IMG/VR virus record: IMGVR_UViG_3300048918_000104 | Span: 1 to 59,371 of that record | Origin: a virus | DNA: 59,371 bases | Direction: 5' to 3' (one strand) | Part shown: positions 1 through 59,371 of the stretch, one piece after another | Layout of the letters: each line of letters begins with the position of its first letter | Numbering within the stretch: position 1 is the stretch's first letter | Notes under the pieces: generated by a model | The model's input: the letters and a program-made list of their open reading frames with translations, nothing else | Databases searched by the model: none | What the model was told of the DNA's origin: nothing | Translations under genes and position numbers: made by a program

Positions 1-90
1 AACTGCGTTATGTCGGTTAGCTCAGTTAGGTCGTTGATTTTAAAGGAAAAGCTCACTTACCGATTTTTCGGTCGGTTATGAACCGGCAAG

Positions 91-112
91 AAAAAAGGCC
101 GCCTAAGCGACC
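91..112 (-). terminator. Rho-independent terminator of the primase operon
   Basis: On minus strand GGUCGC-UUAG-GCGGCC (one G-U pair) followed by U6, about 20 nt after the stop codon at 132. Confidence 0.6.
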
Positions 113-115
113 TTT

Positions 116-127
116 GGAAGCACTTCC
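116..127. repeat. Palindrome variant with 2-nt centre
   Basis: GGAAGCACTTCC between the primase stop (132) and its terminator. Confidence 0.6.
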
Positions 128-131
128 AACC

Positions 132-2795
132 TCAAATATACTTCTCGTCGGCCGGTGATCCGATCCGGACGAACAGCTTGCACGGGCCGTATCTCGGTGC
201 GTAGTGCGTGTTTTTCGTGAATCTCCAGCCCTGAACGCTCGACATCGCGCGTCGGAAAGTCTCCGCTTTGCGGTCGTCACCCTTTGCAAGTACTTCCAAA
301 ACCTCCTTCGAACAGGTCATCGTGCGCAGAACCGGCTCCTGATCGTCCTCCCCGGAGAAGTTATCGGACAGCTTTTTGCAGTCCACCAGCGCCGGATGCG
401 CAGGCTCTTCGAGCCACAACTCCAGCGGCCCCTTCTCCCGATCCTCGGCGCTCTCGATCCGCCGCGACTCCTGCAACTCTTCGGCCCGGATGGCGGCCTC
501 ACTACCGTCAGCCAGGAACAGCGGCAGCTTGTGCGCCGGGTAGTCAATCAGCATGGCTCTGTAGAGCATCAGCGCTTCGGCGTAAAGCTGCGGAATGTTC
601 CGCTGCAGCTCGTCTATGTCGATGAACTTGACCAGACACTCGATAGGCCAGTAGCGCCGGTTGCCGGTCTTGTCGCGCAGATACTCCTTGTCGTTCGTCG
701 TCCCCCAAAACGTCGCCTGCCGCTTGTTGATGAGAGTTCGTCGACCATATGCCGGACGGGCCTTGTCGTTGTAGGCGGTGAAGAATGCCTTCAGCGCGCT
801 CGACTCGCTGCGATTGAACGTGTGCAACTCAGGTATCTCGACGACCATGACGCCCTCAAGCAACTCGGCCGTCTTCTTCGCGTCCGTCACCACGTCGCCC
901 CGCATCTCCGCAAACCAACCCATCGATAGCGTGTGGATGAAGTACGACTTCCGCTTGCCCTGCTTGCCTTCCAGAATCGGCACGTAGTCCCACTTATGCC
1001 CCGGCGTGTAAATCCGCGCGACCATCGCGACCATCACGAGTTCTGCGGTCTCCCGGTGATAGGCGTCATCAGGGCACCCGAGGTATTCGACGAAGAGGTA
1101 TTTCACGCGAGACTTTCCATCCCACTTCACGGACTCGAACGCCTGCTTGACGGGATGGAAGCGAAAGATGTCGGCAGCGAGTTCAATGCCGCCGATAACG
1201 TCCTGCTTCGACGGGCTGATCTGATAGCCGTTATGCGTCGAGCCCCCCGGAAGGCCGAGGAAGTACCGCATCTTCTCGTCATCCTTGTCCGTCCATGCGT
1301 CGCCCCGGATCGGGTCGTCAATCGGCTTTTCGATAACCTTCTTGCCGCCGACGAGCGCGCCGAGCGTACCGGCAGGGAAGTTGCGCCGCTTCACGATAGA
1401 CCGCGCGAACTCATCGTACGCGGCGATCCCGGCAACCCGCTTATCCTTCGTCAGAATTTCAACGACGTTGCGAAGTGTCGGCTTGATGACGCCGCCTTCA
1501 CCATGGTCGAGCTTCGTGATCCAGTTATCGGTATCGAGGTCGTCTTCGTCGTTACCGAGTGCGTCTTCTTTCCGGTCTTCGGCCTTCGCCTCTCCCGGCC
1601 GGGTCTCGGGCTGCTGCTCTTCTTCCTCATCCAGATCGGACATCGCCGCTTTCGTGAGCGACTCCAGATCGTACCGTTCCGACATCAACTCTTTTGCTAC
1701 CGCTTCGTCGGCGTCGAACTGCTCAACCATCGCCTTGAACGAGGGGTACTTCATGGGCGAAGTGTCGGCACGTACCTCGCCGTCGAGATGCGAGTACAGG
1801 TGCAGCCGGACAGCATCAAACGCGTTGTACGAGTGCCCGTTACCGCACGGATCGGAGGAGTGATGCGAGAACAGCAGGCCCTGCTCCGGATATACCAGAA
1901 CGCCGTTGGACTGACCTGTCTCAGACTTCAGATAGGTGTAGCGCACGCCGTTGGAACTAACTTCCGTCGAGCGCTCGTACACGTCAGCGAGGAACGTGTC
2001 GATAGCCTCTTCAATCGGATACGCCCGGTTGAACGCACCGACGATGCCCTTCTTCTCGAACGGGTTTTCCTGCTTCGTGCCAGGCGCGACGAGTTTGCCC
2101 AGCGTCTCGTCTTCCCGGCACGGCAGCTTCGAGAAGTCGCGCCAGTCGCCGAACTCTTCAAGCATCTTGTCCGCGTCGAGGAACGATCCTGTATTGCGCC
2201 CTGCGAGGAACTCGCCATCCCGGTTCGTGAGCGGCTTGTACATGATCTGCGCCAGCACGAACGACACGGTATCGACGTGAACCATCGTTGCGTCAAACTT
2301 CGACGCGAGAATGCGCGATGCAGCAACGAACTTCTCTGCGGCGATAGGCCGGACGAGCGGAACGATAATGCGGAACTTCGGTTTCTCGGGAGTGTGCGAA
2401 CGAGTCGTGTGCCAGATGAACTCGTTGGCGAAAAAGCCCTCACCCGAGTTGAGGTCGAACTGGAATTGAAGAAAGTCCTCGACAGGTAGATTGTCGATAT
2501 CGAGATTGAGGAAGCTGCGCTTCTGGATCGCGCGAGCAACGCGTTTCCCGTCATCGCAATGGCCGCCAACAATGAAGCCCGCACGCATCTTCTCCTTCTG
2601 CTTTTCGTCAGCAGAGAGTGCGTGGTACTGCTTCGTCGTCATGTCTGTACGGCGGTCACTCGTCAGAACATCGACCATCTTTCCCCATGGAGCCCTCTTA
2701 TTAGAGACGTAACCAAGACCGCGCGATCCACCGAGCGAGTACTCGATGATGCGATCAAGGTCTCCGTCATCTTTAACGACTGAGAGATGGGACAT
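132..2795 (-). CDS. DNA primase/helicase, VirE-family P-loop NTPase with N-terminal primase-polymerase-like region
   Basis: 887-aa ORF; Walker A-like LEGKQGKRKS and VirE-type C-terminal half; N-terminal half joined by a D/E-rich acidic linker; adjacent to PolA/DUF2800/DUF2815 module. Confidence 0.75.
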   Translation of the reverse strand: MSHLSVVKDDGDLDRIIEYSLGGSRGLGYVSNKRAPWGKMVDVLTSDRRTDMTTKQYHALSADEKQKEKMRAGFIVGGHCDDGKRVARAIQKRSFLNLDIDNLPVEDFLQFQFDLNSGEGFFANEFIWHTTRSHTPEKPKFRIIVPLVRPIAAEKFVAASRILASKFDATMVHVDTVSFVLAQIMYKPLTNRDGEFLAGRNTGSFLDADKMLEEFGDWRDFSKLPCREDETLGKLVAPGTKQENPFEKKGIVGAFNRAYPIEEAIDTFLADVYERSTEVSSNGVRYTYLKSETGQSNGVLVYPEQGLLFSHHSSDPCGNGHSYNAFDAVRLHLYSHLDGEVRADTSPMKYPSFKAMVEQFDADEAVAKELMSERYDLESLTKAAMSDLDEEEEQQPETRPGEAKAEDRKEDALGNDEDDLDTDNWITKLDHGEGGVIKPTLRNVVEILTKDKRVAGIAAYDEFARSIVKRRNFPAGTLGALVGGKKVIEKPIDDPIRGDAWTDKDDEKMRYFLGLPGGSTHNGYQISPSKQDVIGGIELAADIFRFHPVKQAFESVKWDGKSRVKYLFVEYLGCPDDAYHRETAELVMVAMVARIYTPGHKWDYVPILEGKQGKRKSYFIHTLSMGWFAEMRGDVVTDAKKTAELLEGVMVVEIPELHTFNRSESSALKAFFTAYNDKARPAYGRRTLINKRQATFWGTTNDKEYLRDKTGNRRYWPIECLVKFIDIDELQRNIPQLYAEALMLYRAMLIDYPAHKLPLFLADGSEAAIRAEELQESRRIESAEDREKGPLELWLEEPAHPALVDCKKLSDNFSGEDDQEPVLRTMTCSKEVLEVLAKGDDRKAETFRRAMSSVQGWRFTKNTHYAPRYGPCKLFVRIGSPADEKYI

Positions 2796-2813
2796 TAGAA
2801 CCCCGGAGAAGTG

Positions 2814-3077
2814 TTAAACAAGCTGCAGCGTGAAGTCATGCATGTTCTCGACATCGCGCACGAACGTGAACTTCTCGACAACGTAATTACGGTCGGCACG
2901 AGTCAGGATGGGGAGAAACTTGATACGGACTACTCGATTTTCGTCGATGATGACTTCCCGAAGAGCGTTAGCCAGATCGGCGCGCTGGTCGAGCAGGTAA
3001 GCGGACATATTGAGTGCGAAAGTCATGTGTTCCCGATTGAAAACGGACACAGCTACTGCGCAAGTTGGTTCAAGCAT
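2814..3077 (-). CDS. Hypothetical protein
   Basis: Lower-GC ORF in operon orientation between 3070..3774 and the primase; start uncertain (ATG 3077, 3026 or 3008); antisense ORF 2811..3104 is the competing reading. Confidence 0.4.
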   Translation of the reverse strand: MLEPTCAVAVSVFNREHMTFALNMSAYLLDQRADLANALREVIIDENRVVRIKFLPILTRADRNYVVEKFTFVRDVENMHDFTLQLV

Positions 3078-3774
3078 ACGGATACCCCACATCGGTCGGT
3101 TTAGCGGTGTAGTACTCAAGGGATGTAACCGCGTCCATAGCGGCATATTTCCGGTGAAACGCTGCCCACGACTCGACCAGTGCGATATCCCTAAAGGTTA
3201 CACTGTTTTTGCCGTCTACGACAGTCGTAATGTCCGAAAAAGACAGGTTTTCGGCCTTCATCCAGCGATTAAAGAGGTCGCCGAACGAGCTTCCGGTGTA
3301 TCGGTGTGTCAAAGGCTCGTTTGTCGGCCCGCTGATCGCACTTACGTTGCCCTGCTTCGCCTTCCAGCGTGACAGGAAGCCGTTGGCCTGCGGCGATACG
3401 ATCCGGCGCGCTGCTGCCTGAACCCATGAACGATGGCCGCCTGTGTCCGTGGCGAGCCGGTAAGACAAAGGAGCCCACGAGCCATCTTCGCGGATAGCGC
3501 GCAGGCCCCAATGTGCAAACGGCGTGCGTTCGGAAAACTCATTCCAGTGGATTCGCTGCAGGGACGGCTTGTCACAAAGATCGGGGTCCTCACTACCGTA
3601 GAAGTTCTCGACAAAGTTCGGCAGGCGCTCTTCGAACAGGGCGATGAAAAAGGCGCGGTCGCCGTTCTGCAGGAAGTCCTTGTGCCCGTACTTCGTCAGT
3701 CGCCGTTCGCACTCACGTCGAGCGGCCTGCTGGGAGGGGAAGACGTACTCACCGAAAGCGACTTCATTCGGCAT
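3070..3774 (-). CDS. Hypothetical protein (234 aa)
   Basis: ATG 3774 preceded by AAGGAGA; the longer ORF-track version (to 3861) adds an Arg/Ser-rich extension overlapping the upstream gene. Confidence 0.6.
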   Translation of the reverse strand: MPNEVAFGEYVFPSQQAARRECERRLTKYGHKDFLQNGDRAFFIALFEERLPNFVENFYGSEDPDLCDKPSLQRIHWNEFSERTPFAHWGLRAIREDGSWAPLSYRLATDTGGHRSWVQAAARRIVSPQANGFLSRWKAKQGNVSAISGPTNEPLTHRYTGSSFGDLFNRWMKAENLSFSDITTVVDGKNSVTFRDIALVESWAAFHRKYAAMDAVTSLEYYTAKPTDVGYPYA

Positions 3775-4069
3775 GGGCGCTCTCCTTGCGAGGATGGGTC
3801 GGGAACGCATCCGGGTTGAGCCATTCGCGCGGAGCGAGGTCGCGGCCGACGAGCTTCTCACACTTCTCGGCGATTTGCGGCGGCAGGCGCTGCAGGGCGA
3901 TCCAGTAGGAGATTTGCGAGATATGGACGCCGATCTTTTTAGCCAGGGCGGTAAAACTTCCCTCTTCCGTGCCGTAGATGGCGACGACGCGCAGCTTGAA
4001 CTTCAGTTCCGCGCAGCCGCGAGCGCCGAGGGGCAGCTTGCGGATGTGGCGGGGGTATTCGAGCGGCAT
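3764..4069 (-). CDS. Cro/YdaS-type helix-turn-helix regulator
   Basis: 101 aa from ATG 4069 (GGAGGA 6 nt upstream); HTH-like FTALAKKIGVHISQISYWI; first gene of leftward operon facing a divergent promoter region. Confidence 0.6.
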   Translation of the reverse strand: MPLEYPRHIRKLPLGARGCAELKFKLRVVAIYGTEEGSFTALAKKIGVHISQISYWIALQRLPPQIAEKCEKLVGRDLAPREWLNPDAFPTHPRKESAHAE

Positions 4070-4762: not shown

Positions 4763-4972
4763 ATGCACCTGAACAAACAACAGAGGTATGAGCGCGCCCT
4801 CGCCCGCCGCGAAGGGCAGACAGCCTACGCGAACGGCCTGACGCTCGACAAGAACCCGTACGACGTTGGCACGGACTGCCACTGTCAATGGGATGTAGGC
4901 TGGGAGGAAGCTGCTCGCAGCGATGACAAGTCACCTGGCCTCAGTCTCGGAAATAACTTCCAAAACGCATGA
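4763..4972 (+). CDS. Rmf/CrpP-like small protein
   Basis: 69 aa; RYERALARREGQTAYANG..NPY..CQWDVGWEEA aligns by eye with E. coli RMF RLERAHQRGYQAG..CPY..SQWLGGWREA; GGGAG RBS. Confidence 0.5.
   Translation: MHLNKQQRYERALARREGQTAYANGLTLDKNPYDVGTDCHCQWDVGWEEAARSDDKSPGLSLGNNFQNA
4949..4961. repeat. Palindrome, one mismatch
   Basis: GGAAATAACTTCC, 7 nt before ATG 4969. Confidence 0.7.
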
Positions 4973-6300
4973 AACTCAGACCCGTCGATCTCGAAGAACT
5001 GGCAAGACGCGAGCGGTCGCACTCGATCTTCTCGCCCTCCAGTTCGCACATGTGGATGTCCTGCGCCGGTTCGCTGATTCCGAACGCGATGGCAGGCGAG
5101 TCGAACTCCTACGTGGCCGCCGAGGGAACCGTTGCTCACTCGGTAGCGGAAGAGTGGCTCGCGACCGGCGTACGGCCTCTCAGCCGTATTGGCGACCACG
5201 TTTGGGTCGGCGACGAGATCGACGGGTTCGATATCGAGATCACACGAGAGATGTTGGACCACGTACAAAGCTATGTGCGCTGGTGCAACGAACTGCCGGG
5301 CGACCATTACGTCGAAGCCCGGATCGACATCTCCCGTCTGACCCCGATCCCCAATCAGGGCGGCACGTCGGATCACGCGGCCTGCCACTGGACACCGGAA
5401 GATGGCGGTACGCTGTACGTGACTGACCTGAAGTTCGGCCTCGATATCATCAAGGCGAAGTGGAACTCGCAGCTTTTGCTCTACGCGCTCGGCCGGTTCT
5501 TCGAACTGGACTGGATTTACAGCTTCCGCCGAATTGTGTTGCGTATCGCACAGCCGCGCTGTGACAACTTTGATACATGGGAGATATCGCGCGATGAACT
5601 ACTCATCTTCGCCGGACAGGTCGTCGTTCGTGCGCAACAGGCTTGGCGTCTCAATGCTCCGCGTACGCCGAGTTCGAAGGCATGTCAATATTGCAGCGAG
5701 AAGGAAGTCTGCCCGGCCCGCCTCGTGTGGCTTGAGCGGCTTGTTGCGGGTCGCTTCGACGAGCTTTCGGTGGAAGTAACTTCCGATGAGATGATTGCTG
5801 CGCTCGAAGATATGCATGATCCGCTCGGTGGCGACATTTTCGACGTGCCTGCGGTAGAGTCGCTGTCGGTCGAGGACATGGGGTACATCCTGCCTCATCG
5901 CAGCATGATCGTGAACTGGTTCAAGGCGATGTTCGAGCGCGCCGAGCAGGCTGCTCTTGTTGACCGCATAGAAGTCCCGAACATGAAGCTCGTTCGCAAG
6001 AAGGGCTCGCGCGAATGGACTGAAGAAGAGGCCCGCATCAAGGCCGAGTGGGAGACGATGGGCCTCGACAGCGCGAAGCTGTTCGTGACGAAGATCATCA
6101 GCGTCGCGCAAGCTGAGAAAGAATTGATATCGGCAGGGATGAAGCCTGCTGACCGAAACATCTTCCTGACGCCGCTCTATGAAAAGCGCCAGGGAGGACC
6201 AACACTAGCGCCGCTTTCTGATAAGCGCGCTGTGTACGATGATGGGCTGGCAAGCCGCTTCGACGATATCGAAGATGACGACCCTGCCGATGATCTTTAA
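4969..6300 (+). CDS. PD-(D/E)XK (Cas4/RecB-like) nuclease, DUF2800-type
   Basis: N-terminal SPSSSHMWMSCAGS, DLKFG..NSQLLLYALG core, C-terminal CQYCSEKEVC cysteine cluster; ATGA-coupled to upstream gene; ends DPADDL. Confidence 0.85.
   Translation: MKLRPVDLEELARRERSHSIFSPSSSHMWMSCAGSLIPNAMAGESNSYVAAEGTVAHSVAEEWLATGVRPLSRIGDHVWVGDEIDGFDIEITREMLDHVQSYVRWCNELPGDHYVEARIDISRLTPIPNQGGTSDHAACHWTPEDGGTLYVTDLKFGLDIIKAKWNSQLLLYALGRFFELDWIYSFRRIVLRIAQPRCDNFDTWEISRDELLIFAGQVVVRAQQAWRLNAPRTPSSKACQYCSEKEVCPARLVWLERLVAGRFDELSVEVTSDEMIAALEDMHDPLGGDIFDVPAVESLSVEDMGYILPHRSMIVNWFKAMFERAEQAALVDRIEVPNMKLVRKKGSREWTEEEARIKAEWETMGLDSAKLFVTKIISVAQAEKELISAGMKPADRNIFLTPLYEKRQGGPTLAPLSDKRAVYDDGLASRFDDIEDDDPADDL
5772..5784. 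repeat. Palindrome GGAAG-N3-CTTCC, exact copy
   Basis: GGAAGTAACTTCC inside the nuclease CDS (read E-V-T-S). Confidence 0.9.
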
Positions 6301-7010: not shown

Positions 7011-7063
7011 CCATAGAAGACACATAAATATCCTGTAGTGGGGACGCCCTTGAGGGCTTTGGG

Positions 7064-7090
7064 GGCCGACAGTACGTCGGCCTTCTTTTT
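7064..7090 (+). terminator. Rho-independent terminator
   Basis: GGCCGAC-AGTAC-GTCGGCC followed by TTCTTTTT. Confidence 0.7.
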
Positions 7091-7094: not shown

Positions 7095-7107
7095 GGAAGT
7101 AACTTCT
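7095..7107. repeat. Palindrome, one mismatch
   Basis: GGAAGTAACTTCT, abuts the DNA polymerase ATG 7108, 4 nt after the terminator. Confidence 0.8.
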
Positions 7108-9162
7108 ATGGCTTATGTTGACTTCGCAGACGAACTGCACTTCGACTTTGAAACGAAGAGCGAGACGGACTTAAAAACAGCGGGCCTCATGCGGTATGCA
7201 CTCGACCCCTCTACCGAGGCCATGCTGTGCAGCTACAAGTTCACTTCATGGGGCAAGAACGCCGTCCCGAAGCTGTGGGACTACAACGACACTCGTACCT
7301 TCCCGGCAGAGCTTGCCGACGCGATTGAAGACCCGCGCGTGATGAAGGTCGCGTTCAACGCACAGTTCGAGCGCAACATCTGCAAGCATGTTCTCGGCCT
7401 CGAAACGGACTATAAGTCGTGGCGCTGCGGCATGGTCCTCGCGTACTGCCTGTCGTTCATCGGCGGCCTTGGCGACATCGCAAAGCAGATCGGCGCGCCC
7501 ATCGACAAGCAGAAGATGACCGAGGGCGACCGTCTGATCCGCCTGTTCTGCATGCCCCAGCGCGTGACGAAGAACCAGCCCTACCGCTGGCGCGACAGCC
7601 TGACGGACGAGGAAGATTGGGAGACGTTCCGCGAGTACTGCATTCAGGATACGGTTGCTGAGATCGACCAGTGGAACAAGTTCATCAAGTACCCTATCGG
7701 CGAGAAAGAGTGGGACATCTACGCGTTCGATCAGGAAGTGAATGATCGCGGCTACCCGCTCGACATGAAGTTCATCCACAACGCAATCGAGATGGTCAAC
7801 AAGCGCAAGGCTGAGATCATCGCCGAGATGCGAGACATCACCAGTCTGGCGAACCCGAACTCGCCGCAACAGCTTCTTCCGTGGCTGCGTGAGCGCGGAT
7901 ACCCGTTCAAGGACTTGCAGAAGGCGAGCGTCAAAAAGGCGCTGTCGAACTTCAAGGACGCCATGACCGAGGATGCGATCAAGGCTGCAAAGCTGCGTCG
8001 CTGGTCGGCATCGACGGCAGCGTCGAAATATATGGTCTATGTCCGGCGTGAGGTCGGCGGTCGTTACATGATGGGTCTGCAGATGGCCGGTGCGCAGCGC
8101 ACGCGCCGACATGGCGGCCGGGGCGCACAGCCGCACAATCAGGCCCGTACACCGAAAGACCTCGAAGGAGATGGCCTACTGGAAGTAGCTACCAATCTGG
8201 TCCGTGACGGCGACTACGAGGGCCTGAAACTGTTCTCGAAGGAGCCTATGGAGGTTCTCGCGGGCTGCGTCCGGTCAGCGATTCGTGCGCCTGAAGGCAA
8301 AGAGCTTCGCGTCACCGACCTTACCTCGGTAGAGTCTATCGGCGTCGGATACGTGTCGATATGCGAGCGCATGCTCGACGTGTTCCGCAACGGCAAGGAC
8401 ATCTACAAGGATTTCGGCACGGTGATGTACGGCATCGCCTACGAAGAGATCACGAAGCAGCAGCGGACCGACAGCAAGCCTGCAATTCTCGGCGCGGGCT
8501 TCGGCCTCGGCGGCGGGACACTGAGCGAGGAAGGCGAGCGTACAGGCTTGTGGGGCTACGCGGAGAGCATGGGCATTGATATGTCTCAAGCGGATAGCCA
8601 TCGGTCTGTGACGGCCTTTCGTGACGACTATGCGCCGGAGGTAGTCAGCACATGGGGCGAACTGGACGCCGCCGTGCGTGGAGTCATGAAAGACGGCAAG
8701 CCGCGTACTGCAGGGCGCTTCCGGATCGAGTACCTGCGCCCTTTCCTGCTGATGTGGCTCCCGAGCGGTAGGCCTATCTTCTACTACAAGCCGCAGATCG
8801 ATGAGATACCTATGGTGAGTAAGGCCGGACGGCCCTACACCCGGTATCAGTTCTCGTACATGGGCAAGTCGAAGGTCGGCAACAAGTGGGTTCGTGTCAA
8901 CTCATGGGGCGGCAAGCTGATCGAGAATGGAGTCCAGGCGTTCTGCCGCGACGTGCTGTTCGAGAAACTGCTTGCCCTGCACGAACTCGACTTCTACCTT
9001 GTCCTGCACGTACACGATGAAGGCGTCAGCGAAGAGGACGAGGACGACGACGTTCACACGCTCGACGTGATGAATCGTGAGTTCCGGAAGCCGCCATCAT
9101 GCGCGCCTGACATGCCGATGGGCTCGGCTGGCTACTGCAATCCGTTCTATAAGAAGGACTAA
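7108..9162 (+). CDS. Family A DNA polymerase with 3'-5' exonuclease domain
   Basis: ExoI FDFET; pol motif A DLTSVES, motif B RTDSKPAILGAGFGLG, motif C HVHDE. Confidence 0.92.
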   Translation: MAYVDFADELHFDFETKSETDLKTAGLMRYALDPSTEAMLCSYKFTSWGKNAVPKLWDYNDTRTFPAELADAIEDPRVMKVAFNAQFERNICKHVLGLETDYKSWRCGMVLAYCLSFIGGLGDIAKQIGAPIDKQKMTEGDRLIRLFCMPQRVTKNQPYRWRDSLTDEEDWETFREYCIQDTVAEIDQWNKFIKYPIGEKEWDIYAFDQEVNDRGYPLDMKFIHNAIEMVNKRKAEIIAEMRDITSLANPNSPQQLLPWLRERGYPFKDLQKASVKKALSNFKDAMTEDAIKAAKLRRWSASTAASKYMVYVRREVGGRYMMGLQMAGAQRTRRHGGRGAQPHNQARTPKDLEGDGLLEVATNLVRDGDYEGLKLFSKEPMEVLAGCVRSAIRAPEGKELRVTDLTSVESIGVGYVSICERMLDVFRNGKDIYKDFGTVMYGIAYEEITKQQRTDSKPAILGAGFGLGGGTLSEEGERTGLWGYAESMGIDMSQADSHRSVTAFRDDYAPEVVSTWGELDAAVRGVMKDGKPRTAGRFRIEYLRPFLLMWLPSGRPIFYYKPQIDEIPMVSKAGRPYTRYQFSYMGKSKVGNKWVRVNSWGGKLIENGVQAFCRDVLFEKLLALHELDFYLVLHVHDEGVSEEDEDDDVHTLDVMNREFRKPPSCAPDMPMGSAGYCNPFYKKD

Positions 9163-9165: not shown

Positions 9166-9453
9166 ATGGTCGATCTGTATCGGGGGAAGAAAGAATCGGT
9201 TCTGGAAAAAGACGCGAAGAAGTTCATGAAGACTCGCGGCTGGACTGTTCGAAAGATGAAGTGGCTCGACAGCAACGGTGCGCCGGACGACTTCTGCGCC
9301 CGCAACGGCAGGATCATCCTCGCCGAGTTCAAACGGCCGGACGACCCCGCGCCGACAGTCGAGCAACAGATTCAGCACGCAGAACTCCGGCTTGCTGGCG
9401 TCCAGGTGGAAGTTATTTCCAGCATCGAGAGGGTCTATGAAGTTTTCTATTAA
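9166..9453 (+). CDS. VRR-NUC domain nuclease
   Basis: 95 aa; GAPD ... AEFKR ... Q core in VRR-NUC order; sits between PolA and SNF2 helicase. Confidence 0.7.
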   Translation: MVDLYRGKKESVLEKDAKKFMKTRGWTVRKMKWLDSNGAPDDFCARNGRIILAEFKRPDDPAPTVEQQIQHAELRLAGVQVEVISSIERVYEVFY

Positions 9454-35279: not shown

Positions 35280-35282
35280 ACT

Positions 35283-46892: not shown

Positions 46893-46905
46893 AGAAGTTA
46901 CTTCC
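46893..46905. repeat. Palindrome, one mismatch
   Basis: AGAAGTTACTTCC, 1 nt downstream of the -10 of promoter 46907..46935. Confidence 0.75.
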
Positions 46906-48145: not shown

Positions 48146-48852
48146 GTCTGGTCGCCGCCGATGTCGGCAGGATGCTCTCCGGGAGCTTTGCCGTAGTTCA
48201 TCGGGCGGCTATCGCGCAAATCCGCAGCCCACTGACAGGGTGTGGCGTTCGCAGAAGCCTCGCGTATCTGCTCGGCCGTCTGAAACTGCTCTCGTTTCTC
48301 GCCATACGGCGCGGCGAACAGCGGCGACATGGCGCACTGCCGGTCCTTCGTCGTCGCTGTATTTACGACGCTCGCGATGTGGCCGAAAGCCTCTGCGTAC
48401 ATCCGGTCTACGCGCATGCGCTTGATGAACTGAACTGCAGAGTGCATCGGCTTGCCGGTCTGATGCCAGTCCGGATCGATGTCGTACAGGCAGTTCGCCA
48501 CTTCGCGCCATGCCTCGGCCTGCTCACGGATTGCAGCGAGGTCTTCGCCAGTCGTTTCAGGAGTCGGGCCGGGTTTGGAAGTAACTTCCTCCTTGCGCAC
48601 GACCTCGACCGGCTGGTCGAAGTAGTAGAAGCGGCCATTCGAGAAGCCGTTCTCGTTCGCTACGATGCGCGACCAGCGGATGTCAGTCGCCCACGGACTG
48701 ATGCCTGAGACTTTCGCCGTCAGTTCGTCCAGTCTCTTCAGGCGCGCGGCGATCTCAATGAAGTAGTCGCTGTACGCCGCATAGTCGAGATTCCGTGAGA
48801 AGCGCTCTGCCAGCGCGATCAGCGCTTCAGTGGTGGTTAGTTTCTTGTTCAT
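48142..48852 (-). CDS. Hypothetical protein
   Basis: 236-aa ORF, ATGA-type coupling downstream. Confidence 0.6.
   Translation of the reverse strand: MNKKLTTTEALIALAERFSRNLDYAAYSDYFIEIAARLKRLDELTAKVSGISPWATDIRWSRIVANENGFSNGRFYYFDQPVEVVRKEEVTSKPGPTPETTGEDLAAIREQAEAWREVANCLYDIDPDWHQTGKPMHSAVQFIKRMRVDRMYAEAFGHIASVVNTATTKDRQCAMSPLFAAPYGEKREQFQTAEQIREASANATPCQWAADLRDSRPMNYGKAPGEHPADIGGDQT
48577..48589. repeat. Palindrome, exact copy
   Basis: GGAAGTAACTTCC inside 48142..48852 (E-V-T-S on minus strand). Confidence 0.9.
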
Positions 48853-50194: not shown

Positions 50195-50449
50195 TTAATC
50201 AGCCAGGGCGTCGAGCCGTGGCGAGCGCACGTCGGCAGAGTCCGACGCTTTATCAGCCTTACCTTCATTCGATCTCCTGACCTCCTTCAGCAGCGCCACA
50301 GCGCCTGCATGAAAGTCTGCCTTCTTGCGGTAGGTCCTGCGCAGCGATGCCTTATACACGTCCGGCAGGTTCGCCTTGTTGTTCTCGGCCAGATGATCCC
50401 AGCGTTCGAACTGCTCACGATGCCAGACGTATAGCTGGTCGAGCGTCAT
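50195..50449 (-). CDS. Hypothetical protein
   Basis: 84 aa, ATGA-coupled to upstream gene. Confidence 0.55.
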   Translation of the reverse strand: MTLDQLYVWHREQFERWDHLAENNKANLPDVYKASLRRTYRKKADFHAGAVALLKEVRRSNEGKADKASDSADVRSPRLDALAD

Positions 50450-50958
50450 TTCGGCCAGCCAGCTTCGGCAAGGCTTTCAAGCACGGAAGTAACTTCGGGT
50501 ACGGTCCGGTCGAGCGGCTCATCTGTCTCGACGTACTTCGTGAGTTCGGGAGCGCGAGCATGTAGCTGCTCGACGGTAAAACATGACCACACGAGAGCGC
50601 GTACCTTATCCTTCAGCGCGTCGATTCGATCCTCCTGCTCTCGGTTAAGTCGCTCCAACTCCGCGATCTGTGCCCACAACCTTGCGTCACCTTTAATTGC
50701 CGCGAGCGTCGCTTTCCAATTGTCACTATCGGGTCCGACGATGCACACTTGCGTGAAGTCCGTTCCGGCTTCAGTGTATGTGTGAGAGAACCATTCCGGA
50801 TACTTCGCATACGATCCTCGCATCTCATCCGGGAGGTTCGATATCGCCCACGTCTGCAGAAGCACTCTGAACTTCTCCTGATAGTCGATCATCGGAACAT
50901 CAGCCATCACCGACTTGACCAGTTTCTTGCGCGCGTCGTTTGTAAATCGCTTTGCCAT
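50446..50958 (-). CDS. Hypothetical protein
   Basis: AAGGAGA RBS; 170 aa. Confidence 0.65.
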   Translation of the reverse strand: MAKRFTNDARKKLVKSVMADVPMIDYQEKFRVLLQTWAISNLPDEMRGSYAKYPEWFSHTYTEAGTDFTQVCIVGPDSDNWKATLAAIKGDARLWAQIAELERLNREQEDRIDALKDKVRALVWSCFTVEQLHARAPELTKYVETDEPLDRTVPEVTSVLESLAEAGWPK

Positions 50959-51200: not shown

Positions 51201-51496
51201 GAGTTCGTCTTCCGCGTCTTCGGCTCGCACGTCACGATGACCGTTACCATCAGGTCGCCGCTGCGCGTGATGAACTGGTTGCGTTCGACCTTGTAGCTAT
51301 GGCCGGTCTGCCGTGCTGCGCGCGTGACGGCCGAGCGCGCATTGTTGTCGAGCCGCTCACCGATCTCGGCCGCGCTCTCACACTTGGTCTTGCTGCCGTC
51401 GAACCGTTGAGCCCGCGCTTCCGACTCGCCGGGCTTGAGTGACGCTACGCGAGCTACGAAGCTGGTTGCGCCGTCGTGAACTGAAGTTGCTTCCAT
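51197..51496 (-). CDS. Hypothetical protein
   Basis: 99 aa; the start codon is fused to a palindrome copy (ATG-GAAGCAACTTCA). Confidence 0.5.
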   Translation of the reverse strand: MEATSVHDGATSFVARVASLKPGESEARAQRFDGSKTKCESAAEIGERLDNNARSAVTRAARQTGHSYKVERNQFITRSGDLMVTVIVTCEPKTRKTNS

Positions 51497-51950: not shown

Positions 51951-52397
51951 TTAATCCCTCACCCGGCCGACGTGTTGAACAATCAGCTTCTTGAGCGTCT
52001 CCGGACTGAAGCGGTCGAACGCCGCATTGAGCCTCACAACTACTGCGTCCGTCTCGCCGCCGACCAGCAGCCACGAAACGATCTGGTCGAGCGCATCAAG
52101 CAACGCGCTGCTGTCCTGCGTTGCGTAGTGCGACTTAGAAGTGAAGCCGCTCGCTGACTTAAATTCGAGTTCGACATACGATCGCACGATCCGGTTAAGA
52201 CGATGCGTTGTTTCCTCGAACTCCTTCTGAGTCATCAGGACCGGCTTGTTGCCTTCCGGGCGCTGACGCTGCGGGCGGTACTGCGCGGCCAGATCGGTGC
52301 GCCCTGCAGCTTCGAGCTTCTCTGCTACCTGTGCGCGCTCTGCCTTGTTCAACTTCGGCAGAAGCATGCCGTTAAGAGATGTCGGTTGCTTCTTCAT
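51951..52397 (-). CDS. Hypothetical protein
   Basis: ATG 52397 with AGGAGA RBS; 148 aa. Confidence 0.6.
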   Translation of the reverse strand: MKKQPTSLNGMLLPKLNKAERAQVAEKLEAAGRTDLAAQYRPQRQRPEGNKPVLMTQKEFEETTHRLNRIVRSYVELEFKSASGFTSKSHYATQDSSALLDALDQIVSWLLVGGETDAVVVRLNAAFDRFSPETLKKLIVQHVGRVRD

Positions 52398-52620
52398 TGT
52401 TCTTCTCCTGAAACTCAATCAACTCGTTCGCCGGGACGTTCATCAACTGGATGCACTCGCCGGAAGTAACGTCCCTGTGCTTCGCCATCTGGCCGATGCG
52501 GAACGCATGGAACTTCTCGTTCGTCATAGCCTCTTGCGCGCTCACGTTGAACGCTTTCATCGTGGCCGCGATTGCGAAGAGCGCGATACCTGCCTTGCGG
52601 TTGGTTAGCTCCATTACCAT
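52372..52620 (-). CDS. Hypothetical small protein
   Basis: 82 aa; ATG 52614 has better RBS spacing than ATG 52620. Confidence 0.5.
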   Translation of the reverse strand: MVMELTNRKAGIALFAIAATMKAFNVSAQEAMTNEKFHAFRIGQMAKHRDVTSGECIQLMNVPANELIEFQEKNNEEATDIS

Positions 52621-52847: not shown

Positions 52848-52996
52848 CGCTTGCTCCTTCGTTTTGCCGCCCGTCGTTGCGCTTTCTCTGCAGCGCGGCG
52901 CTCCTTGCGATTGCCCTCCGGCTCGACTACTGAGTACCGGCGTTCCTCCATCCCGTCGCGCATCGTCGCGTACGGTCGGGGTCTCGGTCGTTCCAT
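52844..52996 (-). CDS. Candidate 50-aa highly basic protein (below ORF-track size cut-off)
   Basis: My translation: MERPRPRPYATMRDGMEERRYSVVEPEGNRKERRAAEKAQRRAAKRRSKR; GGAGAA RBS; stop overlaps next ATG (ATGA). Confidence 0.35.
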   Translation of the reverse strand: MERPRPRPYATMRDGMEERRYSVVEPEGNRKERRAAEKAQRRAAKRRSKR

Positions 52997-53028
52997 CCTT
53001 GTTCTCCGATAGGGTTAAACATGTGACG

Positions 53029-53057
53029 ATTTTCGCGCTATGGTTAAGGCTTGTCAA
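53029..53057 (-). promoter_or_regulatory. Sigma70-type promoter heading the early-left operon
   Basis: Minus strand TTGACA-AGCCTTAACCATAGCGC-GAAAAT (17-nt spacer). Confidence 0.55.
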
Positions 53058-53088
53058 CAGATTTCAGTAAGTCCCGCGATTACGGATT

Positions 53089-53101
53089 CGAAGTCACTTC
53101 C
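53089..53101. repeat. Palindrome, one mismatch
   Basis: CGAAGTCACTTCC, 31 nt upstream of the -35 of promoter 53029..53057. Confidence 0.65.
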
Positions 53102-53535
53102 AAAGTAGCGCAGCGTTTCAGGAGTTCGACCGGCGCTCTAAGTAAGGAACGCCCTCGGAGTGGAAACGTCCAGAATTTTCATTATTCGACCTCGACTCCT
53201 AAGTAAGAAAGCGGATGAGGCTGTCCCGAATCTCCATGGGTCAGCGGAGCGGCTGAAGTAACAGAGCGGATCGGGTCGGCCGGGGGTCGTCGGTGCGGCA
53301 GGCGGGCATTGCGGCGAGACGGCAGGTCCGCAGTTCGGCTCGGACGCGCTTAGATCGTATGCGATGGATTGCAGCGAGGCAGGTAGCGCGGCTAGTCCGG
53401 TGAGCGGCTATCAGAGCGCAACGGCTGAAACGGCAGACATTCTTATTTAGTAGCGCTAGGCCGTTAGGCCTGGCGTCTCTCACTTTGCGCCGATAGGCGC
53501 TCTCAATCGGTGTGACGTTTCTATATAAAATTTTT

Positions 53536-53565
53536 TGGACATGGTTTAAGGTTATCTGCTCTAAT
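53536..53565 (+). promoter_or_regulatory. Sigma70-type promoter of the rightward accessory module
   Basis: A/T-rich upstream tract, then TGGACA-TGGTTTAAGGTTATCTGC-TCTAAT (18-nt spacer). Confidence 0.5.
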
Positions 53566-53630
53566 GAGGTCTCTGCTTTACGGCAGACCTGCAGCAGAGA
53601 TGCCAGGCAACTAAACCAAAGGGGCTTACT

Positions 53631-54545
53631 GTGGAAAAGATCAAAACTGTTTTGCATTCTTATTATTTCGACATCAGCAAGACTGAAGAGCAGACCGCGT
53701 ACGAAACGATGGTTGCGACCATCCGCGAGTCGTTCAAGGGTGACGTATGGTCGTGGGACCTTACTGGCGGCCGGACCAGCAATGTCGCGGCATGGGATTT
53801 TGACGACAAAATTCGCAAGCTCGGGACCTATGCGCCGGGTCAACGGCAACAACAATTCACGGTTGAGATTGAACTCGAAACGAAGCATCTCTTCGCAGAC
53901 CAATGGAACAGCGCTCCAATGCCGGGCTTCGAGTCAGGCGCGCGGCTCTTCAATTGGTCGGAGAATGTCTATCTCAACCGCTCGATTAGAACGGGCTGTT
54001 GGATTGAACAGAATGCCGCAATGGCTGAAGTTCTCCGCAATACTCACAAGTGCGGCTTTTGCGGAAAGCAGGAACCCGCACAGAAGGGCTATGTCTTCTG
54101 CCCGCATTGCATCGATTCGGAATTCCTGACTAAAGACCGCTTGCCGCTTACCCGTATGGTTCCGGTCCGCGATGAGCGCAAAAAACGCGCCGAACTGACA
54201 CAAGCGGAAAAGGACTACCTGTATCCGCTTTACGATGAGGCTCAAAAGAACGGCAAAACGGCGCGCGGTATTGCACGACTCACTAAGGCTAAAGCCGATA
54301 TTGAGCGTCAATTCGAAAAGACCGTTCGTGTGGCGACAGTTAAACGCGATGCTGCGCGGTGGATTGTGGCAAACATTCCGGGCGCTCTCGACAATTGGAT
54401 TTACTACGATCACACGGATCGGCATTGCTTCGGGTGGCGCAACCTGTTGACCGACGATGAGGTCTCTGCCCTGTTGGACGTTATCAGTGAGTTTCCGTTT
54501 CAGTACGAACTGAAGTGCGCTGATGGTCGCACGCTCTCTAACTGA
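53631..54545 (+). CDS. Hypothetical protein with central zinc ribbon
   Basis: GTG start after AAAGGGG RBS; CGFCG..CPHC; 304 aa. Confidence 0.65.
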   Translation: MEKIKTVLHSYYFDISKTEEQTAYETMVATIRESFKGDVWSWDLTGGRTSNVAAWDFDDKIRKLGTYAPGQRQQQFTVEIELETKHLFADQWNSAPMPGFESGARLFNWSENVYLNRSIRTGCWIEQNAAMAEVLRNTHKCGFCGKQEPAQKGYVFCPHCIDSEFLTKDRLPLTRMVPVRDERKKRAELTQAEKDYLYPLYDEAQKNGKTARGIARLTKAKADIERQFEKTVRVATVKRDAARWIVANIPGALDNWIYYDHTDRHCFGWRNLLTDDEVSALLDVISEFPFQYELKCADGRTLSN

Positions 54546-55895: not shown

Positions 55896-56147
55896 ATGAC
55901 ATTAACCCAGCTAATCCGCCAGGCCGCTGCTCGCATGTCGTCCGTTACTGTGGAAGTGCAAACCAATTTCGGAACGGTCTGCATTAAAGACGACGACGGC
56001 GTACAGGAAGACATCTTTATGCAGGGGGATGAGGCGACGCAATTCATCAATGAGGCGGAACGCGGCTACAAAACATCGCGCTATGTGAGCATGGATGAGT
56101 GCTATCTGTGGCAAGCGGAACAATACGTCGAAAACCTTTGGAACTGA
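55896..56147 (+). CDS. Hypothetical small protein
   Basis: ATG 55896 one nt after upstream TGA; 83 aa; stop codon in the centre of palindrome 56140..56152. Confidence 0.55.
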   Translation: MTLTQLIRQAAARMSSVTVEVQTNFGTVCIKDDDGVQEDIFMQGDEATQFINEAERGYKTSRYVSMDECYLWQAEQYVENLWN

Positions 56148-56152
56148 CTTCC
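56140..56152. repeat. Palindrome, one mismatch
   Basis: GGAACTGACTTCC; centre TGA is a stop codon; 3' arm abuts ATG 56153. Confidence 0.75.
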
Positions 56153-58161: not shown

Positions 58162-58310
58162 GCCTATCGCTCTGATAGCGCGTCTGTCACTACTGCCAAT
58201 AGCAACGCGGTTCGATTTGAGGGGCATAGCTGCCTCTCGTTTGAGCCGTCCTATATCACCCTAGCCTGAAAACGTGAGAGCGGCTTATACGCTGTGTGCG
58301 CACGTCTGTT

Positions 58311-58323
58311 GGAAGTTGCTTCC
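58311..58323. repeat. Palindrome, exact copy
   Basis: GGAAGTTGCTTCC in non-coding DNA, followed by ATG. Confidence 0.9.
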
Positions 58324-58339
58324 ATGCTGTGCGGCTGTG
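58311..58339 (+). repeat. 29-bp direct repeat, copy 1 (palindrome + ATGCTGTGCGGCTGTG)
   Basis: Identical 29-mer at 58379..58407. Confidence 0.9.
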
Positions 58340-58402
58340 TGCGCTGTGCGGTTGTGTCGATGTCCGGCTGTGCGGGCTGGAAGTTGCTTCCATGCTGTGC
58401 GG
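58326..58402 (+). repeat. Iteron-like GCTGTGCGG repeats (4 exact copies)
   Basis: Exact 9-mers at 58326, 58343, 58367, 58394, plus GCTGTGTGCG variants at 58291 and 58334. Confidence 0.8.
58379..58391. repeat. Palindrome, exact copy
   Basis: GGAAGTTGCTTCC in non-coding DNA, followed by ATG. Confidence 0.9.
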
Positions 58403-58407
58403 CTGTG
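58379..58407 (+). repeat. 29-bp direct repeat, copy 2
   Basis: Identical to 58311..58339; 68-bp period. Confidence 0.9.
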
Positions 58408-58496
58408 CCGCGTTGACGTGGTGCGGATGCACGGCGCTATCGGTCTGTCGATTGGAGATGGTTTCAACGGCTGGGCGGCTGAACGGCGGCTCGGCA

Positions 58497-58509
58497 GGAA
58501 GTTACTTCC
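58497..58509. repeat. Palindrome, exact copy
   Basis: GGAAGTTACTTCC in non-coding DNA, followed by ATG. Confidence 0.9.
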
Positions 58510-58809
58510 ATGTGAGCGGGTCCCATCTGGAGGGTCGCAGCGAGGCGGGAGGGCGCAGAGCCCCGCTGTCGGACAATTTTTCGGCGCGTGTAGTACACCT
58601 TTGGCGGGAAATTCCGGCGTCAGGTGATGCGGCAAAGCCGCAGTGTACAGAAAGTGCAACCGGATTGGATACACAAACGCGATCCGCGCACGTTTTCGCG
58701 GCGGGCTGGACTTCGGGGTTTCGTGGGAGTTTGCTGCGGACTGCGGGAGGGAGTCGGACCGCGCGAATGGCGGCCCGGTACTTCAAGTCTAGGTCAGATC
58801 AGGCGGAAT

Positions 58810-59040
58810 TCAAGTACGACTTGATTGCGGTTGCGGAATGACCGGCCACGACAACTTCCGGGCTATCTCGTCCTTCGACTCACGGACGTAGGTGCAATCG
58901 ACCTCGCCGTTCGAGGGGTCGATACCGAAGATCAGTTGCGTGCCGGAGCCGCACTCACCTACTGAGCGAACTCGATCCATGTTGAAGAGTTCGGTATCGC
59001 GGTCATCCCGGTCTGTGGGTGTGAGTTCAAGCCATGCCAT
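58810..59040 (-). CDS. Hypothetical small protein
   Basis: 76 aa; AAGGAG RBS preceded by a palindrome variant. Confidence 0.55.
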   Translation of the reverse strand: MAWLELTPTDRDDRDTELFNMDRVRSVGECGSGTQLIFGIDPSNGEVDCTYVRESKDEIARKLSWPVIPQPQSSRT

Positions 59041-59054
59041 CGTTATTCTCCTTT

Positions 59055-59066
59055 GGAAGTACTTCT
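59055..59066. repeat. Palindrome variant with 2-nt centre
   Basis: GGAAGTACTTCT just 5' of the RBS of minus gene 58810..59040. Confidence 0.55.
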
Positions 59067-59123
59067 AAGCTCGGTTATTTGTGGTTAGCAGTCCGGTTAG
59101 CCCGGAAAGCCTTGCCAGTAGCC

Positions 59124-59174
59124 ATTCTAACTAATATAACCAATATAACCAATATTTATTGAAGATATAGATAG
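59124..59174. other. AT-rich tract with tandem AATATAACC 9-mers
   Basis: AATATAACC at 59133 and 59142, then AATATTTAT; by far the most AT-rich stretch in the window. Confidence 0.7.
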
Positions 59175-59244
59175 GGTTCTTATGCTTCCTTACAGGGACT
59201 GTAAGAATACGTACATACCCCCGAGGGCCGCCATAGTCTAAGTG

Positions 59245-59371
59245 AACTGCGTTATGTCGGTTAGCTCAGTTAGGTCGTTGATTTTAAAGGAAAAGCTCAC
59301 TTACCGATTTTTCGGTCGGTTATGAACCGGCAAGAAAAAAGGCCGCCTAAGCGACCTTTGGAAGCACTTCC
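59245..59371. repeat. Terminal duplication, copy 2 (identical to 1..127)
   Basis: See 1..127; unique genome length is therefore 59244 bp. Confidence 0.97.

Follow-up and report, generated by a model that had tools for sequence, protein, structure and literature searches.

Why would a phage genome keep about 30 dispersed copies of one short palindrome, does the word act as duplex DNA or as RNA, and what reads it? These questions are raised by IMG/VR virus record IMGVR_UViG_3300048918_000104, the whole 59,371-nucleotide stretch of which was analyzed here (hereafter the window). A sequence-only reading of the window had described dispersed copies of GGAAG-N3-CTTCC and had left open whether they act as DNA or as an RNA hairpin. 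We find that the word is kept by selection across a group of related phages, and the evidence leans to a protein-binding site on double-stranded DNA.

Excess and Definition of the Palindrome

The counts were compared with 100 dinucleotide-preserving shuffles of the window, a control that had been suggested along with the first description. GGAAG-N3-CTTCC is present in 10 exact copies, all at the positions first listed, versus a shuffle mean of 0.04 and a maximum of 1, and 30 matches are found when up to one mismatch is allowed (1.53 expected; shuffle maximum, 7), so that the controls fall far below the observed numbers. The 19 one-mismatch copies listed earlier were all recovered, together with a further match at 35918 (GGAAGCGCCTTCA), which has three mismatches to the full motif, is not kept in a relative (L127) and is probably due to chance. 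When every gapped palindrome of the window was scanned without bias, a single outlier was evident, GAAGT-N1-ACTTC, with 15 exact copies (0.24 expected); at up to one mismatch there are 28 copies, 15 perfect cores and 13 with one mismatch, compared with 1.46 expected. Since GAAGT-N-ACTTC is the only outlier of the scan and also shows this one-mismatch excess, the true unit is the symmetric word Y-GGAAGT-N-ACTTCC-R. The 15 perfect and 13 one-mismatch cores of GGAAGT-N-ACTTCC are found in coding and noncoding DNA, and the signal is unusually clean, with an approximately 100-fold excess and a strict geometry.

A recount agrees with the TAA or TTA center reported for 17 sites, and the gene map bears out the occurrence of sites in all three reading frames, on both transcription arms and at gene boundaries. 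One perfect core, at 22891–22901 (AGAAGTTACTTCT), was absent from the earlier list. The 12-bp forms with a two-nucleotide center, which had been set apart as a class, do not hold up as one: in 178 kb of relatives, the arms are separated by three nucleotides in 88 cases, by two in none and by four in 3. The two-nucleotide-center copy at 26994 (GGAAGGACTTCG) is a weak match, and the copy at 116 reappears at 59360 solely through the terminal 127-base repeat of the window, so that the two are one and the same site.

The Phage Genome and the Spread of the Word

Bases 59245–59371 of the window repeat bases 1–127 exactly (127 bp); therefore the window represents a circular assembly closed by overlap, in which one unit measures 59,244 bp. 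Its replication proteins comprise a VapE-type primase-helicase, a DUF2800 exonuclease, an Enc34-type single-stranded DNA-binding protein (SSB), a family A DNA polymerase (PolA, 7108–9162) and an SNF2 helicase, downstream of which lie the terminase, portal, protease, capsid and tail genes and then a long leftward arm of small genes. The gene order agrees with that of phage Chi and of Burkholderia phage BcepNazgul, and the top match of the DNA polymerase among cultured phages is only 47% identical. The window is the complete genome of an uncultured Chi/Nazgul-like (Casjensviridae-like) siphophage. No integrase, CI-like or other immunity repressor or ParA was found among the ~40 nonstructural open reading frames (ORFs) of the window scanned against Pfam and PHROG, and the phage looks lytic.

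Using TGGAAGTWACTTCCA as a query in IMG/VR, we have identified many contigs with five to nine exact copies per 10 kb, and these motif-rich contigs encode relatives of the window proteins at 30–55% identity. In 50 kb of BcepNazgul we counted 15 perfect cores, versus 0.16 expected, among a total of 21 sites, and the flanks are C..G rather than T..A. Ten copies are found in 22 kb of a 59.7-kb contig binned with an Acetobacteraceae metagenome-assembled genome (MAG), and seven perfect cores in 21 kb of L127, a 58-kb Joint Genome Institute contig. A sister lineage (L122, L123, L131 and L307) has no GGAAGT word and carries GGAAAT-S-ATTTCC at 7–10 copies per 22 kb. The word is thus a feature of a whole clade that includes BcepNazgul and not a quirk of one genome. 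Beyond this clade, no enriched palindrome of any kind was found in the scan of phage Chi, and zero copies of the word are present in Burkholderia phage AH2, of the same family as the window, and in the unrelated Burkholderia phage Bcep22. We rejected the motif as a Casjensviridae-wide feature because of the results for Chi and AH2, and because AH2 (same host genus and family) and Bcep22 have zero copies, the word is probably not a general host-imposed signature. Full-text literature searches returned no published description of the word, and none of any repeat in BcepNazgul, AH2 or Chi.

Palindromes of other types were noticed in several of the phages compared. Pseudomonas phage vB_Pae-SS2019XI (L124) has 11 copies of aaTCAAC-N5-GTTGAt in 50 kb (1.3 expected), for example at 2666, 9296, 19887 and 28666. 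In SS2019XI and in L129 this weaker palindrome is mostly found between genes, often just 5′ of A/T-rich −10-like sequences, and in the SS2019XI lineage it may correspond to the GGAAGT word. L129 (Pseudomonas citronellolis LMG 18378, NZ_FOLS01000028.1, 118 kb) is an SS2019XI relative inside an isolate-genome contig, with a PolA 48% identical to that of the window, which suggests that some family members can be carried in or with bacterial genomes. AH2 (L211) has five copies of GACAC-N9-GTGTC, at 5954, 6647, 8416, 10994 and 12976; in four of the five, a TTGACA −35 overlaps the left arm, as in an operator-in-promoter design, and the fifth lies inside the ParB-like gene. L213 carries eight copies of GCGT-N-ACGC (0.64 expected), an odd palindrome with a GT-N-AC core design in common with the GGAAGT word, and L212 has six copies of GTAG-N9-CTAC (0.09 expected).

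Purifying Selection and Recoding Within Genes

It had been proposed that relatives be scanned for sites that stay in place while their neighbors drift, and this is what we observed. When the window is compared with L121 (82% nucleotide identity), 8 of 11 aligned sites keep all 12 specified bases. Over ten window sites, 6 changes are located at the 120 specified positions, five of them in one lost site, and the free center base is changed in three of the ten. In L127 (73% identity), all four perfect cores in aligned stretches are unchanged. The sites are under strong purifying selection.

This selection extends into genes. In a nonredundant set of 199 kb, intragenic sites read E-V-T-S 39 times, x-K-L-L 14 times and G-S-x-F 11 times, and they are found at orthologous codons in lineages whose proteins are about 50% identical: TerL residue 289, portal residue 386, PolA residue 448 and helicase residue 362. 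At TerL residue 289, CGSYFE is spelled GGAAGTTACTTCG in nine motif-bearing sequences, versus CGEYFE, CDQYFE or CNGYFE in AH2, Chi, SS2019XI and others. Similarly, the portal protein has VGSDFE with the motif and VGTDYE or VGDGFE without it, and PolA has YxEVTS in BcepNazgul, L138 and L037 versus Yx(E/Q)(V/I)T(K/G) or YxET/DTKPH in other sequences. In the helicase, KLLQ is retained but encoded by AAG-TTA-CTT, with the use of TTA, normally the rarest leucine codon in GC-rich genomes. The variant lineage has HDEIIS (GAAATCATTTCC, which carries a GGAAAT-type site) in the motif C region of PolA, where the window has HDEGVS. Because orthologous codons differ between motif-bearing and motif-less relatives and the rare TTA is used, the word is judged, from these alignments, to have reshaped protein sequence and codon choice. 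The earlier argument that selection acts on the nucleic acid rather than on a peptide is thereby strengthened, as seen in the changes of CG[E/Q/G]YFE to CGSYFE in TerL and of ...TK to ...TS in PolA; a peptide-driven artifact was rejected, since all three frames are used and both residues and codons differ from those of motif-less relatives. A mobile repeat resembling repetitive extragenic palindromes or bacterial interspersed mosaic elements (REP/BIME), or miniature inverted-repeat transposable elements (MITEs), was also rejected, as the word is only 13–15 bp and half of its copies lie in frame inside genes at orthologous codons.

Placement of the Sites

In a nonredundant 199 kb, 64 of 128 sites are located outside coding sequences, though only 12.6% of the DNA is noncoding (P = 4 × 10−21). 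The usual order is stop codon, word, start codon, and in the early region of contig 3300047409_000056 a site is found at nearly every gene junction. Among 59 oriented intergenic sites, 31 have a stop codon at most 12 nucleotides upstream, and 16 have an ATG 0–2 nucleotides downstream, versus none in the antisense control. This layout would mainly reflect economy, the gaps between genes being tiny and GGAAG being placed to serve as a ribosome-binding site. The tape-measure and tail genes (21977–35282) are poor in sites, with just those at 22890 and 27979 in 13 kb, versus about one per 1–1.5 kb in the first 19 kb. The upstream gene 46898–47203 (−) (...H-N-W-K-stop) terminates with the central TAA of site 46893–46905, and the site also covers the predicted start of the next promoter.

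The marking of many gene borders could also be explained if the sites were targets of an endonuclease or a recombinase, or border homologies that promote module exchange between related phages; genes for a small endonuclease, an exonuclease and an SSB are present in the family, and some insertions and deletions in Cluster O mycobacteriophages, which carry a dispersed repeat of their own, fall between repeats. However, 30 palindromic cleavage sites would leave the genome in fragments, the copies within genes at orthologous codons mark no module borders, and Chi, which is without the motif, also encodes the endonuclease, exonuclease and SSB. We regard such a role as most improbable.

We further examined the 27 strongest sigma-70-like sequences in 228 kb for a site centered within −100 to +40. 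Twelve of them have a site in this range, compared with 2.7 expected, and the site centers cluster at about −51, −22 and +1 relative to the promoter-like starts. The center is at +1 in window site 46893 and its L127 counterpart, at about −22, in the spacer, in L019 and L069, and at −50 to −52 in window site 42471, L127, L128 and one L069 promoter. Site 10737 of L069, in front of its ParB-like gene, has a 9-nucleotide spacing to a TTGACA.

Duplex DNA or RNA Hairpin

The center trinucleotides in the 178 kb of relatives are TAA (59), TTA (58), TCA (12) and TGA (7), the center base in sense orientation is A in 53 sites and T in 53 with no strand preference, and the flanks mirror each other, with Y and G on the left and C and R on the right. 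The bases adjoining the center, which would be loop positions in an RNA, are invariant, the stem never covaries, and the predicted hairpin is weak (−3.3 to −5.9 kcal/mol). The motif has no match in Rfam, its sites were not called by a terminator scan, and strong hairpins are not enriched 3′ of the sites (6 sense versus 14 antisense). A terminator or a known RNA family was rejected because of the weak hairpin, the lack of downstream hairpin enrichment and the lack of an Rfam match.

It might still be supposed that a GGAAG/UWA/CUUCC hairpin at cistron junctions hides the ribosome-binding site for translational coupling, or is the target of a repressor or an RNase. The stop and start codons that adjoin the oriented intergenic sites, with no ATG in the antisense control, and the position of GGAAG at a workable Shine–Dalgarno distance are in keeping with such a hairpin; on the other hand, any 13-bp word in short gene gaps must touch stop and start codons. 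Together with the weak fold, the invariant stem and loop-flanking T and A, the balanced center and the Rfam result, the location of half of the sites inside genes and of several upstream of −35 or in divergent control regions makes this explanation very unlikely. The fixed spacing, balanced center, mirrored flanks, weak hairpin, sites upstream of −35 and lack of an Rfam match argue for a symmetric dimer on duplex DNA. From this pattern, it is highly probable that the word is a protein site on duplex DNA, and the DNA-or-RNA question leans clearly to the double-stranded form.

Candidate Readers

The protein encoded at 41306–42373, which had been called ParB-like, does belong with the ParB/KorB family. 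It has a Pfam KorB domain above threshold, and a nine-sequence profile matches Spo0J (4e-9), KorB (4e-8 and 5e-8; 1r71 and 8qa8 are among the KorB matches), Noc and ParB in the PDB over the N-terminal fold and the helix-turn-helix (HTH). Its AlphaFold model (predicted local distance difference test score, pLDDT, 77) has KorB 8qa9 as the best Foldseek match (1e-7). Residues ~270–354 of the model form an alpha-beta-beta-beta-alpha arrangement with weak Foldseek matches to double-stranded RNA-binding domains (Loquacious dsRBD3 and RNase III); the dimerization domain of KorB is SH3-like, unlike this C-terminal fold.

In four lineages, a site lies upstream of the gene at conserved spacing, and in L021 three tandem sites precede it. 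In BcepNazgul, where few sites are clearly intergenic, two of these (15166 and 16478) bracket the ParB-like gene (Nazgul29). Dispersed palindromes are bound by proteins of the ParB family, and the KorB OB site shares the 13-bp odd-palindrome design. On these grounds, the ParB/KorB-like protein is the best candidate for the reader, although the assignment is tentative, at well under even odds. A word-indexed search of proteins yielded only six ParB-like homologs, and no consistent pattern was found when the DNA-binding residues were examined for covariation with the motif type.

Two other proteins were considered and rejected as readers. The recognition helix of the YdaS/Xre-like HTH protein encoded at 3764–4069, the Cro-like candidate of the sequence-only reading, does not track the motif; its homologs are found in GAAGT-, GAAAT- and CAAC-type lineages, and no site is present in its own promoter region. 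The zinc-ribbon protein encoded at 53631–54545 (Nazgul11 in BcepNazgul) has homologs in L212 and L213 (43–46% identity), which are without the GAAGT motif, and a structural homolog in Enc34, though in the window and in BcepNazgul alike its gene adjoins a divergent control region that contains a site.

The zinc-ribbon gene, 53631–54545 (+), is the first after the divergent control region. Its 304-residue product belongs to the BcepNazgul gp11 family, with more than 300 homologs at 42–80% identity and an invariant CxxC...CPHC zinc ribbon. The AlphaFold model (pLDDT 95) has no PDB fold match and a single structural relative, an uncharacterized Enc34 protein, so that, as modeled, it looks like a new fold.

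A Proposed Model of Genome-Wide Control

Taken together, we favor a reading in which a homodimer binds the ~30 duplex sites and acts as a genome-wide transcriptional governor, with the ParB/KorB-like protein as its best candidate; as a joint statement, we give it a probability of about 0.45. A sequence-specific homodimeric protein, made in cells infected by phages of this lineage, would bind the Y-GGAAGT-N-ACTTCC-R duplex. The ~30 sites would be kept where their cost is lowest, in short stop–start gaps, with GGAAG doubling as a ribosome-binding site, and at tolerant codons. At early promoters, a site over the start point or in the −35/−10 spacer would lead to repression; at the ParB/KorB-like gene, the site fixed at about −52 upstream of the promoter-like sequence would allow autoregulation; and inside operons a bound site could serve as a roadblock or a loading point. 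The ParB/KorB-family protein would work on its sites as KorB does on its 13-bp OB. That the main effect of the bound protein is on transcription is conceivable at somewhat under even odds.

Several observations weigh against this reading. The recognition helix varies under an identical motif (STRRWIDD in the window, VTNKHVRD in L069 and ISDRYLYD in BcepNazgul), and the helix of the GGAAAT-lineage protein, RTTRHIDN, resembles that of the window despite the different word. Chi and AH2 encode ParB-like proteins yet are without the motif. The cytidine triphosphate (CTP)-pocket motifs are degenerate, with GHHR for GERR and DNSGE for ENLQR (L069 and SS2019XI have GHRR; the reference motifs are GERRxR and ENLQR), and no ParA or KorA partner was found in the scan of the ~40 nonstructural ORFs. 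The association with promoters is partly confounded, as promoters and sites both favor intergenic DNA, and most sites are not near recognizable promoters, as in the Cluster O phages. Prophage silencing in the manner of stoperators has no obvious use here, since the phage looks lytic and has neither integrase nor immunity repressor in that scan. The varying helix is not fatal to the ParB-like candidate, because KorB reportedly reads its site partly via residues outside the HTH, according to the work on 1r71, and a shared intergenic preference leaves the conserved phasing to promoters unexplained.

The same helices bear on the possibility that a host protein, either a conserved global regulator or a nucleoid-associated protein, is exploited by the phage lineage. 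An identical motif across phages with very different ParB-like and HTH recognition helices is what such a reader would produce, with the word constant while the phage DNA-binding proteins diverge, and the variant word belongs to a separate lineage that may infect other hosts. Against this, copies are missing from AH2 and Bcep22, every motif-rich IMG/VR contig examined is a relative of the window, with no unrelated phage found to carry the word, and the word is shared by a Burkholderia phage and the contig binned with the Acetobacteraceae MAG, though phage contigs cannot be binned reliably. No host regulator with such a site came up in a full-text search for the word, and we know of none with a GGAAGT-N-ACTTCC site. 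A host reader is therefore doubtful.

The chief rival to transcriptional control is a structural role, in which the sites serve for loading or anchoring as do parS, NBS or matS, and a ParB-family or other protein coats, condenses, positions or marks the chromosome so that it can be replicated, packaged or protected; what counts would then be only how many sites there are and how widely they are spread. Half of the sites lie within genes, at orthologous codons, and the majority are remote from promoter-like sequences, the spacing is roughly regular (~1–1.5 kb) over the first 19 kb, a ParB-like gene is present, and ParB, Noc and KorB all use dispersed palindromes. The authors who described the Cluster O repeat took the same view of it. 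However, a structural role does not require conserved phasing (+1, −22 and −52) to promoter-like sequences, it sits poorly with the long intervals in the tail genes that have no site (21964 to 27979 to 35283) and with the degenerate CTP-binding motifs, and no ParA was found among the nonstructural ORFs scanned. We consider it rather unlikely.

A broader joint statement, which we put forward as speculative, is that the word is an address code. A large, mostly uncultured, apparently lytic Casjensviridae-like clade would keep a 13-bp palindrome every ~1–2 kb, even in conserved enzyme and capsid genes, and the reader, an orphan ParB/KorB-fold protein or another protein, would mark or silence the whole chromosome or load onto it. 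Lineages would recode the word (GGAAGT to GGAAAT) along with the reader, and the Cluster O repeat would be a second, independent instance. If true, this would be a general and so far unrecognized layer of chromosome organization or self-marking in lytic phages.

Sites and Associated Features in the Window

Table 1 Sites of the word and associated features in the 59,371-nucleotide window
Feature	Position	Strand	Remarks
One-mismatch site GGAACTAACTTCC	1953–1965		Primase gene; identical in L121
YdaS/Xre-like HTH gene	3764–4069	−	Recognition helix does not follow motif type
One-mismatch site	4949–4961		Near end of gene 4763–4972
Perfect site GGAAGTAACTTCC	5772–5784		Reads E-V-T-S in DUF2800 exonuclease gene; kept in L121, where the center base alone differs
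Perfect core GGAAGTAACTTCT	7095–7107		Between terminator-like hairpin 7061–7085 and PolA ATG (7108); identical in L121
One-mismatch site GGAAGTTATTTCC	9408–9420		Lost in L121
One-mismatch site	10290–10302		SNF2 helicase gene; identical in L121
Perfect core	12494–12506		TerL residue 289 (CGSYFE); same codons in nine motif-bearing sequences
Perfect core	15217–15229		Portal gene, residue 386 (VGSDFE); common to L037 and L138
Perfect site	18824–18836		8 nt past major capsid stop, GC-rich hairpin directly after; kept in L121 despite diverged flanks
Weaker site GGAAGGAACTTCC	21679–21691		3 nt ahead of gene 21695–22177
Weaker site GGAAGCAACTTCC	21964–21976		Exact GGAAG-N3-CTTCC copy
Perfect core AGAAGTTACTTCT	22890–22902		Tape-measure gene; absent from earlier list
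Perfect core	27979–27991		Tail gene; symmetry extends to tttttGGAAGTAACTTCGaaaaa
Perfect site	35283–35295		3 nt past a stop codon, ahead of hairpin; unchanged in L127
Weaker site GGAAGGTACTTCC	36217–36229		Unchanged in L127
Perfect core	37215–37227		14 nt ahead of start of 785-residue tail-fiber-like gene; core unchanged in L127
ParB/KorB-family gene, orphan	41306–42373	−	Predicted N-terminal ParB/Srx fold with GHHR, then HTH domain; leading candidate reader
Promoter-like TTGACA-18-TATACT	42432–42461	−	In front of ParB/KorB-like gene
Perfect core	42471–42483		9 nt upstream of −35 of promoter-like sequence of ParB/KorB-like gene (center ~−52); same spacing in L127, L128 and L069
Perfect core	46893–46905		Covers predicted +1 of TTGACA-17-CATAAT; same arrangement in L127
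Promoter-like TTGACA-17-CATAAT	46907–46935	−	Predicted start falls in site 46893
Perfect site	48577–48589		Within gene 48142–48852 (−)
Perfect core	50485–50497		Within Nmad5-domain gene
One-mismatch site	51482–51494		DUF7609 gene start (M-E-A-T-S)
One-mismatch site	52462–52474		Within gene 52372–52614
Perfect core, center C	53089–53101		Divergent control region 52848–53630, upstream of TTGACA-17-GAAAAT
One-mismatch site	56140–56152		Immediately 5′ of ATG at 56153
30-nt direct repeat, two copies, each with one-mismatch variant GGAAGTTGCTTCC	58310–58407		Variants at 58311 and 58379
Perfect site	58497–58509		Noncoding region near genome ends

We also noticed several features near the genome ends and in the leftward arm. 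The two copies of the 30-nucleotide direct repeat (TGGAAGTTGCTTCCATGCTGTGCGGCTGTG) are 68 bp apart within a TGTGCGGC-rich stretch (58310–58420), and an A/T-rich block (~59100–59230) adjoins the genome ends; the repeat and the block may be an origin or cos-proximal iterons. A 76-residue ORF at 58810–59040 (−), which was passed over by gene prediction, lies downstream of a gap-0 form of the word (AGAAGTACTTCC) and has a good AAGGAG ribosome-binding site. Genes 50446–50958 (−), 47178–47909 (−) and 40764–41306 (−) encode an Nmad5 (nucleotide-modification-associated) domain, DUF3850 (PUA/ASCH-like) and DUF1643, respectively, and these domain assignments hint at a DNA or nucleotide modification module adjoining the ParB-like gene.

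Comparison with Known Systems

The Noc-binding sites (NBS), the matS sites of MatP and the SlmA-binding sites (SBS) are chromosomal palindromes of 12–16 bp that occur in tens of copies and are tolerated in genes, and it is their number and distribution that matter. Unlike the word described here, they belong to bacterial chromosomes, where they are linked to cell division or macrodomains.

The stoperators of mycobacteriophage L5 are 13-bp sites bound by the repressor gp71 as a monomer, and they serve prophage silencing in temperate phages. The window resembles this system in having ~30 copies of a 13-bp word on both arms, concentrated in short intergenic gaps by stop and start codons, with at least one copy overlapping an early promoter. 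Stoperators of L5 and other Cluster A phages are asymmetric and oriented with transcription (PMC4351075), whereas the GGAAGT site is symmetric in its center base and flanks. Furthermore, unlike Cluster A phages, the window has no integrase or immunity repressor among the nonstructural ORFs scanned.

KorB of the IncP plasmid RK2 binds OB, TTTAGC-S-GCTAAA, which is present in about a dozen or more copies over ~60 kb. Both words are 13-bp odd palindromes with a degenerate center base, with copies near promoters, far from promoters and inside genes, and in both cases a ParB/KorB-family gene is encoded on the same element, here with a site just upstream of its promoter-like sequence. The differences are that the window is a phage and not a plasmid, that no KorA or IncC/ParA partner is found among the ORFs scanned, that its protein has degenerate CTP-pocket residues and a recognition helix that does not follow the motif, and that the site upstream of −35 is centered at about −52, whereas KorB sites upstream of −35 are centered at −39/−40. 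The comparison with KorB and stoperators made in the first description is thus apt for how the sites may work, but stoperators fail on orientation and the KorA and ParA partners are missing.

The closest published analog is the 17-bp repeat of the Cluster O mycobacteriophages, TGTTCGG-N3-CCGAACA, of which Corndog has 34 copies, 14 intergenic, 10 near 5′ ends and 10 internal; a dimeric DNA-binding protein was presumed, and its authors judged a transcriptional role unlikely (PMC4351075). In both cases, upward of 30 dyad-symmetric copies are spread over a siphophage genome of 60–70 kb, with an A/T-rich center, no meaningful orientation and positions conserved among relatives, and the GGAAGT sites are likewise intergenic, at 5′ ends and intragenic (~40% between genes, ~30% near 5′ ends and ~30% internal in Cluster O). 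The two words are unrelated in sequence, with arms of 6+1+6 here versus 7+3+7, and the GGAAGT word belongs to phages of Gram-negative hosts. It persists across genera at 30–55% protein identity, whereas Cluster O comprises five closely related genomes; moreover, only here does a sister lineage have a one-base half-site variant, have intragenic sites reshaped amino acids and codons, and is a site present at a substantial fraction of the strong promoter-like sequences.

Lytic phage genomes seldom carry dispersed, symmetric words under strong selection, and for none of these words has a mechanism been established. As the motif is present in BcepNazgul, which can be cultured on Burkholderia cepacia, its reader and function are experimentally tractable. 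The word could be used as a diagnostic signature of the clade in metagenomes, and it is a constraint to be respected when such phages are recoded or engineered. Orphan phage ParB-fold proteins are listed as uncharacterized in a 2025 survey (PMC12704722), and work on this word could reveal their role and could also explain the Cluster O repeat. What goes beyond the Cluster O precedent is the depth of conservation, the lineage-specific variant and the demonstrable recoding of proteins.

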